Shown: positions 6,001 through 9,000 of the stretch, one piece after another | Position numbering within the stretch: position 1 is the stretch's first letter | How the letters are laid out: each line of letters opens with the position of its first letter | Virus record (IMG/VR): IMGVR_UViG_2939521961_000004 | Reading direction: 5' to 3' (one strand) | DNA length: 64,000 nucleotides | DNA from: a virus | Taxonomy: Duplodnaviria; Heunggongvirae; Uroviricota; Caudoviricetes | Made by a program: the position numbers

Positions 6001-9000
6001 GCAAGCAGATGAGCTGATTTTTCCGTCCCTTCGCAGGGCAAACCTGGCGCTGCGCAGGGCGAAAAGTGATGTTCAGAAGTGGGAGCGAGTCTGCGCCGCG
6101 CTGCGGGAGCTGAACAAGCACCGGGATATTGTTCGACAGATTACTGATTCTTCCCGCCGTGTTGTATCGGAAAAGTGATTGCCGGAGGCGCTTATGGCAA
6201 AAGTATTTACACAGGAAGAGCGGGAAAAAATTAAAGGGCAGGTTGTTGAGCTAGTACGCCGGAGTGGGCGCGAGACGTTACGGCAACTGGAAGCCAAGAC
6301 AGGTGCGACAAGATATCTGATGAGCGTTCTTGCCAGAGAGCTGGTTGCCAGTGGCGATGTATACAACTCTGGTTACGGGTTATTCCCATCTGAACAGGCT
6401 CGTAAGGACTGGCAAAACGCCCGCAAAAAACTATCGAGGGCAAAACTGAAGAAACCGGTTGTGGTTGATCCTGACCTTATCTGGTCATTACCAGACGGAG
6501 AAATACGCCGCTATGACAGGCAATTGAACATAATTTGTAGTGAGTGCCGTAACAGTGAAGTGATGCAGCGAGTTTTGATATTTTACACAGGAGTAATGAT
6601 GGAATAGTGAAAATAACATGAAACCTTTGGATTCTGGTGTTTCAGTGGATGGGAAAAGAGCAGATACATAGAAAATGAATAGCAATAATTCACAGTCTGG
6701 ATGTTGTTTGTATGCTTATAAAATGATCCTAGTATGCATTGCCGGAGTTGAATCAGCTCCAATGAAGAAACTGAGAGGAGTATTTAGAAGATAGCTAAAT
6801 GGATGTAATTATTAGTATCTAAAAAATAGTATTTTTGAAATGGGTCTAAGAACACAACAATGTACAAATGAGAAGTTATCTTTTAATATGTTCAAAGACC
6901 CATTAGGATTGATATCAGTTATGTTAGCTAGATTGATAAAGTGATTACATATTTTCTGTTATATGCTGAAATGAATAATGCTATTCCAGAGTGCAGCAGA
7001 GAAAGTCTCCTGATGATTGAGCTCTGGAAATTGTACAATAGAAAAATTACTGTATTTTTCTGTCAAAATATTTCTCAAAACAGATTCCGCTTTGATGGCT
7101 TCAGGATATAAAGATGCGGAGTAATCAAGGCTAAGATTTCCGTTAAGCAAGCATATACTTTTAGTGTGCTTTGATTCTGATATATCATCTTTAATTATCT
7201 TGATGATTCTTTCATTCTGCCATAGAAGTGATGGTGCAGATATATAATAATAGTTAAAGCATGAATTATTTTTTAAGCAATCAAGCACAAAAATAGCACC
7301 TAGCGAGTGCCCCCATATACCGATTCTGGAACTGTTCGGAGCAATAGTACTAACCCATGGCATGATCTGAGTTAGTAATAATTCTCGGAAAGACTGGCTT
7401 CCTCCACCAGTAAAGTAGATCCATGCTGGTTTAGAGTTATCAACAATAGCATTTTCACCATCAGGAGTATAATCGTAAGCACGGCGATGAATGCTAAGGT
7501 TATTCCAAGATTCATAACCAAGTGTAACTAACACTGGTGGATTGGGTAGTGCATCAATAACAGGCAGAATATCAGAAATGTAATTGTTGGCACTATTCCC
7601 ATCAAGTATATAAAGAGTTGCATTATTTTTTTTAATGTTTTTTGGAGTAAAAATACATATTTTATATTTGGTGTCATGGTTAATTGAGTTAAATATGCGT
7701 GTTTGACAATGAATGTCCATATGTTTAGTCATGCGTTCTCCCCATGAGCATTAAAGGATGCTTAAGATATGCTATGTCACTGATAAAAAATTTGTTGTGT
7801 GTGTTTAGTTATTTTATCTACCTCCATTATGATTTAAGACTGATATATGTTATCAGCAAAGGTACATCGTTATTATTTTACCTGTCAATACATTTGATAT
7901 TGATTATCGTTTACATCGCTTGCTTAGGAAATTGAAGGCAGGTAACTATCATGTCAATGAACTAACCCACAGTCTAACGTACTTCTTTCCCCAATCACCA
8001 ACAACCAAATTCCTGTTATCACCACTGGGATTTTGGCGCAACTTCATGGTGCAGAGGTAAATAGCATCAAGCAAAATCTCTTTTTCCGTTGTTGTCCTTA
8101 TGGGACGTCTGTCTTTCTGACCGATTTCATATTGGCGAGGTAATGGGAAGTTAAGTAGAATAGCTGCGGGTGCTTGAGGCTATCTGCCTCGGGCATGAAC
8201 ACCAACGGCAGATAGAGAAAAGCCCCAGTTAACATTACGCGTCCTGCAAGACGCTTAACATTAATCTGAGGCTCAATCTATGAACGGCAAATCTAGGTTA
8301 GCCTCTTACGTGCCGAAAGGCAAGGAGAAGCAGGCTATGAAGCAGCAAAAGGCGATGTTAATCGCCCTGATCGTCATCTGTTTAACCGTCATAGTGACGG
8401 CACTGGTAACGAGGAAAGACCTCTGCGAGGTACGAATCCGAACCGGCCAGACGGAGGTCGCTGTCTTCACAGCTTACGAACCTGAGGAGTAAGAGACCAG
8501 GCGGGGGAGAAATCCCTCGCCACCTCTGATGAATCAGGCATCCTCAACGCACCCGCACTTAACCCGCTTCGGCGGGTTTTGTTTTTTCCTGGCATTCTGG
8601 TTTACAATTCGCACGCCAGCCTGAACAACTGGCACCTGCTGCGCCAGCAGAGACAACCGATGGCGCACGATACCAAATTATACAATTCTGATGATTCTGC
8701 CGTCTTTGCCAGCAGGCGCGGACGGTGTTTTCACGCATTCAAATCTGACTGGTACCAGCATCCCCCATGCACTGAAGAACAGGCCGAATGGCTCATTCAG
8801 TGTTACCGCAGGCGCGGATGCGAGGTTAAAAAAGCCCTTAGCCTCGACTACCGTCACTGGATAATCTCCGTCAGGCTCCCTTACTCCGAACGGCCACCGC
8901 GTCCGTCCCGCACATTCCAGCAACGGATCTGGAGGTAATGTGCGGGTATTACTTCGACCTGTTCTGGTACCGGAACTCGGTCTGGTTATCGTTAAGCCAG

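Follow-up and report, generated by a model that had tools for sequence, protein, structure and literature searches.

The question raised by the hok locus of a 64,000-nucleotide (nt) viral DNA, IMG/VR record IMGVR_UViG_2939521961_000004 (the whole of which is referred to below as the window), is whether a toxin gene carried by a prophage is accompanied by a gene for the antisense antitoxin RNA, Sok. An initial annotation had assigned 8280-8590, within a prophage, to a type I toxin locus (mok/hok), had not located sok and had left open whether the locus is regulated. The type I toxin assignment is borne out by a match to the Pfam family HOK_GEF, by an Rfam RF01794 match above the gathering score and by identity to prophage hokD loci. 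Both mok and hok lie inside 8280-8590, but the unit begins ∼150 nt further upstream (promoter at 8132..8161, mRNA 5' end at ∼8168), and sok was found at 8323..8218 on the minus strand. The locus is read here, with a probability of about 0.9, as a complete type I toxin-antitoxin module (hok/mok/sok) that belongs, like hokW-sokW of Sakai prophage 5 (Sp5), to the type carried by lambdoid prophages. The basis of this reading is sequence anatomy, homologies and predicted folds. Transcription, processing, translational coupling, RNase III cleavage, toxicity and role are proposed by analogy with hok/sok of plasmid R1 and with hokW-sokW, for which Hok toxicity and its neutralisation by Sok are known (PMC9841398 and PMC8621323, respectively).

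The toxin gene hok occupies 8337..8492 on the plus strand and is preceded by a Shine-Dalgarno (SD) sequence, AAGGAG, at 8322..8327. Read from an internal ATG at 8337 within a 70-codon open reading frame (ORF), it encodes the 51-residue peptide MKQQKAMLIALIVICLTVIVTALVTRKDLCEVRIRTGQTEVAVFTAYEPEE, in agreement with the length first reported. This peptide matched Pfam PF01848 (HOK_GEF) with an E value of 1.2e-23, and the 70-residue Mok form did so with an E value of 3e-23; the Pfam score was 82.9 bits against a cut-off of 22 bits. Hok of the window is identical to K-12 HokD at 51/51 positions and 42% identical to Hok of R1. The in-frame Mok-like extension upstream of hok was also recovered. Here, the mok frame identified in the ORF list (8280..8492, plus strand, 70 codons) adds 19 codons to hok, begins at the ATG at 8280 behind an SD sequence of its own (GAGG, 8268..8271) and ends at the hok stop codon, a geometry that is also annotated for mokC/hokC of K-12 in RefSeq. 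The mok start falls in the same alignment columns as the mok starts of hokW, hokC and R1.

The relation of the two frames varies among related prophage loci. An in-frame mok was counted in 84 of 106 complete loci, 83 of which carry the 70-codon form of the window. Out-of-frame mok was present in 16/106, comprising 11 loci with a 19-codon mok that ends just past the hok start and 5 with 68 codons in another frame; the hok start was not located by the script in 6/106, and these loci are unclassified. The varying frame would fit the view that it is translation of mok that matters, and not the Mok product. Frame variation was seen in locus L010 and its relatives and at 534..747 of locus L006, and a hok gene shortened to 37 codons was observed in locus L034.

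The sok gene was located in three independent ways: by reading the minus strand, by alignment to known sok loci and by mapping onto the window the reagents with which hokW-sokW has been studied. On the minus strand, a promoter could be read at 8295..8323, with a -35 hexamer TTGCCT (8323..8318), a 17-nt spacer and a -10 hexamer TAACCT (8300..8295). Downstream of the -10 hexamer lie AGATTTG, a tail, a long hairpin and UUUU. The predicted Sok RNA (8218..8288, minus strand, assigned by folding and homology) would start at 8288, 7 nt downstream of the -10 hexamer, and would end at 8218 after ∼71 nt; it would consist of a 14-nt single-stranded 5' tail (8288..8275), a hairpin (8274..8220) and a U-run (8221..8218). 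The minimum free energy (MFE) of the 71-nt fold was −30 kcal/mol, compared with −15.05 ± 2.65 kcal/mol for shuffled sequences (z = −5.6), and 0 of 200 shuffles folded as well. In the alignments, the base that corresponds to 8288 in K-12 is the annotated 5' end of sokC, 9 nt inside mokC, and an R1-type plasmid locus carries TTGCGC-17-TATCCT in the same columns as the sok promoter of the window. These promoter columns are almost invariant, with an entropy of 0.03..0.06 across 98 unique related loci.

For the third approach, the hokW-sokW primers, probes and clone described by Takada 2021 (PMC8621323) were placed on the window. The mutations that render sokW "promoter-less" (primers YO-421/422) map to 8294, 8295, 8298 and 8300, which correspond to T1, A3 and T6 of TAACCT and the next base, and both the -10 hexamer and the spacer of the window are identical to those of sokW. 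Mutation of the sokW promoter releases HokW toxicity, and sokW activity can be supplied in trans by a clone (Takada 2021, PMC8621323). This trans-acting clone corresponds to 8186..8340, its end primers matching 8186..8206 and 8319..8340 with 0 mismatches. The sokW Northern probe corresponds to 8259..8288 with 6 mismatches, its last base falling at the predicted Sok start, and the hokW probe matches 8296..8325 exactly, covering the spacer, most of the -10 hexamer and 5/6 bases of the -35 hexamer. In summary, positions 8323..8218 on the opposite strand contain every part of a sok gene (promoter, 5' tail, hairpin and U-run), and its transcription is predicted.

A further candidate for the antitoxin was the Rfam match itself. 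RF01794 ("sok antitoxin (CssrC)") matched 8168..8342 of the plus strand over model positions 1-157 of 157, scoring 107.1 bits where the gathering score is 59 bits. Since this model runs from the 5' end of the hok mRNA to the hok AUG, it represents the hok-sense leader, in its processed fold and including the stretch complementary to Sok, and not Sok RNA; the match was rejected as sok itself.

The sense transcript was delimited in a similar manner. A consensus scan for sigma-70 promoters reported a single promoter-like site in 8000..8750, the candidate hok/mok mRNA promoter at 8132..8161 on the plus strand (-35 TTGGCG, 18-nt spacer, -10 TAGAAT). Its -10 hexamer is aligned with TAGAAT in hokW and phage Rac, TATAAT in K-12 hokC and TATGAT in R1-type hok, and ends 7 nt ahead of the conserved mRNA 5' end GGGTGCTTGAGG. 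At the other end, the terminator first reported was confirmed by a scan that returned a terminator-like hairpin at 8561..8578, with a 4-nt loop and a 7-pair stem in which 5 pairs are G-C, and with TTTGTTTTTT behind it. This intrinsic terminator (8561..8586, plus strand) is identical in K-12 hokD. The full-length hok mRNA is thereby predicted to extend over ∼419 nt, from the conserved 5' end at 8168 to the terminator T-run at 8586, both ends being placed by homology. The RNA spanning 8168..8586 folds with an MFE of −172.9 kcal/mol (z-score −7.7 relative to shuffles).

Within this transcript, the elements that characterise hok mRNAs could be recognised on the plus strand. The tac element, GGGUGCUUGAGG, forms the first 12 nt (8168..8179), and the fbi element, CCUCAA-C-GCACCC, lies at 8542..8554. 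The two pair with one another when the full-length RNA is folded, in the MFE and centroid structures alike (duplex energy −21.5 kcal/mol), and the pairing shows compensation between families: GGCGCUU/AAGCGCC in R1-type loci corresponds to GGGUGC/GCACCC in the window. The ucb, or anti-SD box (AAGCCCC, 8220..8226), was assigned from pairing in the predicted folds. In both full-length folds, AGCC of the ucb (8221..8224) pairs with GGCU (8270..8273) at the mok SD.

A different arrangement was predicted when ∼45 nt were removed from the 3' end. In the truncated RNA (8168..8540), the 5' end (8168..8175) pairs with the ucb (8220..8226) in a tac/ucb stem, and GAGGCU (8268..8273) pairs with AGCCUC (8300..8305) in an SD/dcb stem. 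Both predicted stems agree with the Rfam consensus structure, and both are named in the R1 model as described in PMC9841398. The SD/dcb pairing gives rise to the putative Sok-target hairpin of the processed mRNA (8268..8305, plus strand), which contains the mok SD GAGG (8268..8271), a loop (8284..8291) and the dcb AGCCUC (8300..8305) and corresponds to helix 3 of the RF01794 consensus. Loop bases 8284..8288 are complementary to bases 1-5 of the predicted Sok. In the partition function, the unpaired probability of the hok SD rose from 0.28 to 0.65 on 3' truncation. The predicted folds support a helix switch, and not an argument from accessibility of the mok SD. As far as sequence allows, the regulation left open in the initial annotation can be filled in: the locus has a complete sok and lacks none of the cis-acting elements found in mRNAs of this family.

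These elements suggest the following mechanism, modelled on the known systems. A stable mRNA of ∼419 nt would be made from the 8132..8161 promoter and would be held untranslatable by the tac/fbi lock, with the ucb lying over the mok ribosome-binding site. Slow trimming from the 3' end would take off fbi, whereupon the 5' end would pair with the ucb, the mok SD/dcb hairpin (8268..8305) would form and its loop would become the entry site of the antitoxin. Sok, unstable and ∼71 nt long, would be made in antisense from TTGCCT-17-TAACCT and would run from 8288 to ∼8218. Base pairing of its 5' tail to the loop and mok start codon, together with masking of the mok SD by its hairpin arm, would block translation of mok; because translation of hok would be coupled to that of mok, hok would be blocked as well, and RNase III would cut the duplex of Sok and mRNA. 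Were sok transcription to stop, for instance on prophage induction or on loss of the element, Sok would decay, Hok would be made and the inner membrane would be damaged. By analogy with hokW-sokW, the most likely role is that of helping lysis and phage release on induction.

The closest characterised relative is hokW-sokW itself, from the Stx2 phage Sp5 of E. coli O157:H7 (PMC8621323). It too is borne by a lambdoid prophage, its mRNA is ∼90% identical to that of the window, and its mok is likewise in frame and 70 codons long; the sequence compared was that of Stx2 phage I, which agrees with the Takada 2021 primers. Identity is unevenly distributed, being 100% in the leader (8168..8217), 98% in the Sok hairpin, 96% over the sok promoter and mok N terminus, 95% in the hok coding sequence, 73% in the 3' untranslated region and 60% in the Sok 5' tail (8274..8288). 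In the promoter/mok interval, the differences fall at 8290 and 8293, both outside the sok -35 hexamer, spacer and -10 hexamer. By contrast, the Sok tail differs from that of sokW at 6 of 15 positions (8279 and 8283..8287), five of them contiguous, so that the two do not have the same recognition sequence. Given these mismatches, cross-protection by sokW would not be expected. The Hok C termini read TAYEPEE in the window and VDYESEK in hokW, and hokW diverges past fbi, so that the terminators differ. The window locus is a sister allele of hokW-sokW, probably with another antitoxin specificity, as judged from the aligned tails, and an effect on cross-reaction would follow. On exposure to mitomycin C, sokW disappeared and HokW accumulated in a RecA-dependent manner, and deletion of hokW-sokW halved phage release (Takada 2021, PMC8621323).

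Alignment to more distant relatives, namely R1-type loci and K-12 hokC/sokC, placed every element in register, as did alignment to hokW and phage Rac. The R1 hok/mok/sok locus (parB) resembles the window in gene order, antisense overlap at the mok start, the tac/fbi, ucb and dcb elements and Pfam family, and the sok promoter has a like layout (TTGCGC-17-TATCCT in the R1-type locus). Its mRNA is ∼47% identical and its Hok shares the 42% identity given above; relative to R1, the window has a shorter tac-ucb leader and a Sok hairpin at least 18 nt longer, and it is prophage- and not plasmid-borne. The K-12 hokC/mokC/sokC locus (gef) is alike in having mok in frame to the hok stop, in the register of sokC with 8288 and in its 5' end GGGTGCTTGAGGCT. 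It differs in nucleotide sequence (66% identity), in its IS186 flanks, in its Sok tail and in a Sok hairpin 18 nt shorter, the longer hairpin being common to the window and hokW when compared with hokC and R1.

The K-12 hokD gene (relF, Qin prophage) stands in a different relation to the window. It encodes the same peptide at 51/51 residues, and its DNA is nearly identical from 8323, at the hok SD, through fbi and the terminator. All that lies upstream of 8323 in the window, including the hok promoter, tac, ucb, mok start, sok -10 hexamer and sok transcript, is replaced in K-12 by relB-relE. That relB-relE-hokD arrangement does not occur at the window locus, where a full leader, mok and sok are found instead. 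Of the two, the window has the complete form, and K-12 hokD is a truncated derivative of such a locus.

Variation among related loci is concentrated where the antitoxin would be recognised. When IMG/VR was scanned for a pattern flanked by fixed anchors, 123 loci were obtained in all, among which the 26-28-nt segment between the anchors occurs as 22 alleles; that of the window is joint third most common (14 loci). In 98 unique 440-nt segments, column entropy within the transcript peaks at 8277..8286 with a mean of 0.85 bits. The promoter columns, the hok coding sequence and most of the leader stay at 0.02-0.2 bits, and the 3' untranslated region as far as fbi at 0.2-0.5 bits; a second rise is confined to the terminator at the 3' end. 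The anchor columns (8257..8272 and 8301..8309) were fixed by the scan pattern, cannot vary and were ignored. The variable patch, ∼8277..8290, coincides with the Sok 5' tail, the loop of the target hairpin and mok codons 2-4, which suggests allele-specific antitoxin recognition among related prophage loci. Such recognition is said to have been established already for hok loci in general, by Pedersen and Gerdes in 1999. A more far-reaching idea, offered tentatively and held to be somewhat doubtful, is that the patch is under diversifying selection, each co-resident lambdoid prophage in a genome of Shiga toxin-producing E. coli (STEC) having a private, non-cross-reacting antitoxin. If this were so, induction or loss of one prophage would free only the toxin of that prophage.

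Several points weigh against reading the locus as a complete and working module. The same sigma-70 consensus scan that found the hok promoter returned no minus-strand promoter in 8000..8750, and the promoter ascribed to sok, found by reading and by homology, matches the consensus at 7/12 positions only. The RF01794 match shows conservation of the leader and not antisense transcription, and the mok SD did not become more accessible on truncation, its unpaired probability falling from 0.25 to 0.03 in the partition function. The evidence for this copy is of two kinds, sequence and predicted folds. For hok loci on the chromosomes of K-12, E. coli C and ECOR24, post-segregational killing has been reported to be absent (cited in a bioRxiv survey), and the role in phage release is known only for hokW-sokW, with a two-fold effect (PMC8621323). 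If Sok were not made, the toxin would be controlled by the mRNA fold and the transcription programme of the prophage alone, an account that would suit both the weakness of the minus-strand promoter by consensus, missed by the scan, and the lack of a sok annotation at the identical RefSeq locus. The low consensus match is itself the reason that sok escaped both the scan and the initial annotation. A negative scan was rejected as evidence that sok is absent, since the sokW promoter, its homologue, contains these weak hexamers too and has been mutated experimentally; sokW is driven by them with an identical spacer, and mutation there releases toxicity (PMC8621323). With promoter columns almost invariant over the 98 unique related loci and a Sok hairpin and U-run far more stable than shuffles, absence of Sok is considered very improbable.

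It is also quite improbable, if slightly less so, that the locus is a silent relic with the sequence of hok/sok but without expression or toxicity, as reported for several chromosomal hok loci. Copies do decay, as is evident from K-12 hokD, which encodes the identical peptide and has lost its leader, mok start and sok to relBE, and chromosomal hokA, hokB and hokC have been reported as unable to mediate post-segregational killing (bioRxiv survey). The window locus, however, bears no known inactivating lesion: it carries no insertion sequence (IS) element, its frames are uninterrupted, and none of the promoters, tac, fbi, ucb, dcb and terminator is missing. It is 100% conserved across many genomes, and for hokW-sokW, at 90% identity, activity of both toxin and antitoxin has been demonstrated by experiment (PMC8621323). 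A less remote alternative keeps the same anatomy and assigns it a different main role: in place of help in lysis, the module would serve prophage maintenance, by killing cells from which the prophage has been lost, or would shut out superinfecting phages through abortive infection. In its favour, R1 hok/sok stabilises plasmids and lowers T4 plating (literature discussion), hok genes are enriched approximately four-fold in prophages (bioRxiv survey), and the difference in recognition patch between prophage alleles fits element-specific addiction. Nothing in the sequence separates such roles from a lysis role. The sole direct test of a prophage copy, that of hokW-sokW, gave a positive effect on phage release, maintenance or defence not being reported, and hok was not enriched beside defence systems in the bioRxiv survey. 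A main role in maintenance or exclusion is possible but rather unlikely, and a complete hok/mok/sok module that would assist phage release is the preferred reading. The locus is a conventional member of a well-studied family, of a kind already known.

The genomic setting of the locus is that of a lambdoid prophage. Chromosomes of O26:H11, O145:H28, O103 and other STEC contain loci that match window 8100..8650 at 100% identity, and 463 records match the locus at 99% or more. Matches to the hok locus of some kind were present in 4755 of 5426 complete E. coli genomes, at a median of 2 and a maximum of 11 places per genome; STEC genomes have 5-8 hok-like places each. Window 412..17650 is colinear with a prophage of O26:H11 11368 at 100% and 99.98% identity, with one break, where IS1203 interrupts an alpha/beta hydrolase gene in O26 and is absent from the window. 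According to the O26 annotation, hok is preceded by relBE, repressor-like helix-turn-helix genes, YdaT, replication genes, DUF1627 and DUF977 and is followed by DUF968, RusA, antiterminator Q, a tRNA triplet, holin and lysozyme. The host element is accordingly a lambdoid prophage, with hok in a nin-like region between the replication genes and DUF968/RusA/Q. RefSeq calls the gene hokD at the identical locus of O26:H11 11368, a name that follows from the identical peptide and near-identical DNA of K-12 hokD, and annotates neither mok nor sok there.

Other features of the window were recorded in passing. The gene split by IS1203 in O26:H11 11368 is intact in the window as a 257-residue ORF on the minus strand (6959..7732), an alpha/beta hydrolase by the O26 annotation, for which no Pfam match was obtained at E 0.001 or better; the interval ∼6950..8100 appears by eye to be AT-rich relative to the surrounding prophage. 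Genes for a RelE/ParE-family toxin and the relB antitoxin are located at ∼1080..1558 on the minus strand, ∼7 kb upstream of hok, as transferred from the O26 annotation with an offset of +411. A tRNA triplet followed by the small RNA STnc100 occurs twice on the plus strand, at 13068..13584 (138 bits) and 62392..63585 (105 bits), which points to two lambdoid prophage late regions in the window. Another prophage-borne regulatory RNA, the antisense RNA DicF, was matched over its full model at 48602..48653 on the minus strand (75 bits). An ALIL pseudoknot at 43872..43988 on the plus strand (121.5 bits), the frameshift signal of IS3-family transposases, marks an IS element in the second half of the window. 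A hok locus at 96.6% nucleotide identity was also seen in PP818812.1 (13208..13644), labelled "Actinobacillus phage vB_Apl-pPE4"; its presence in a phage with a Pasteurellaceae label is unexpected and may reflect either a phage derived from E. coli or a labelling problem.

The main value of these results lies in annotation. Given that RefSeq labels the gene hokD without mok or sok at the identical locus, and that the Rfam family named for sok matches the hok-sense leader, a reader may wrongly infer a toxin without an antitoxin. With sok placed at 8323..8218, the locus becomes a complete and, as judged from its sequence, probably active module of the kind that assists release of an Stx2 phage. 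The allele-specific recognition patch would moreover offer a simple means of probing cross-talk between hok/sok copies, of which the prophages of STEC genomes carry many.

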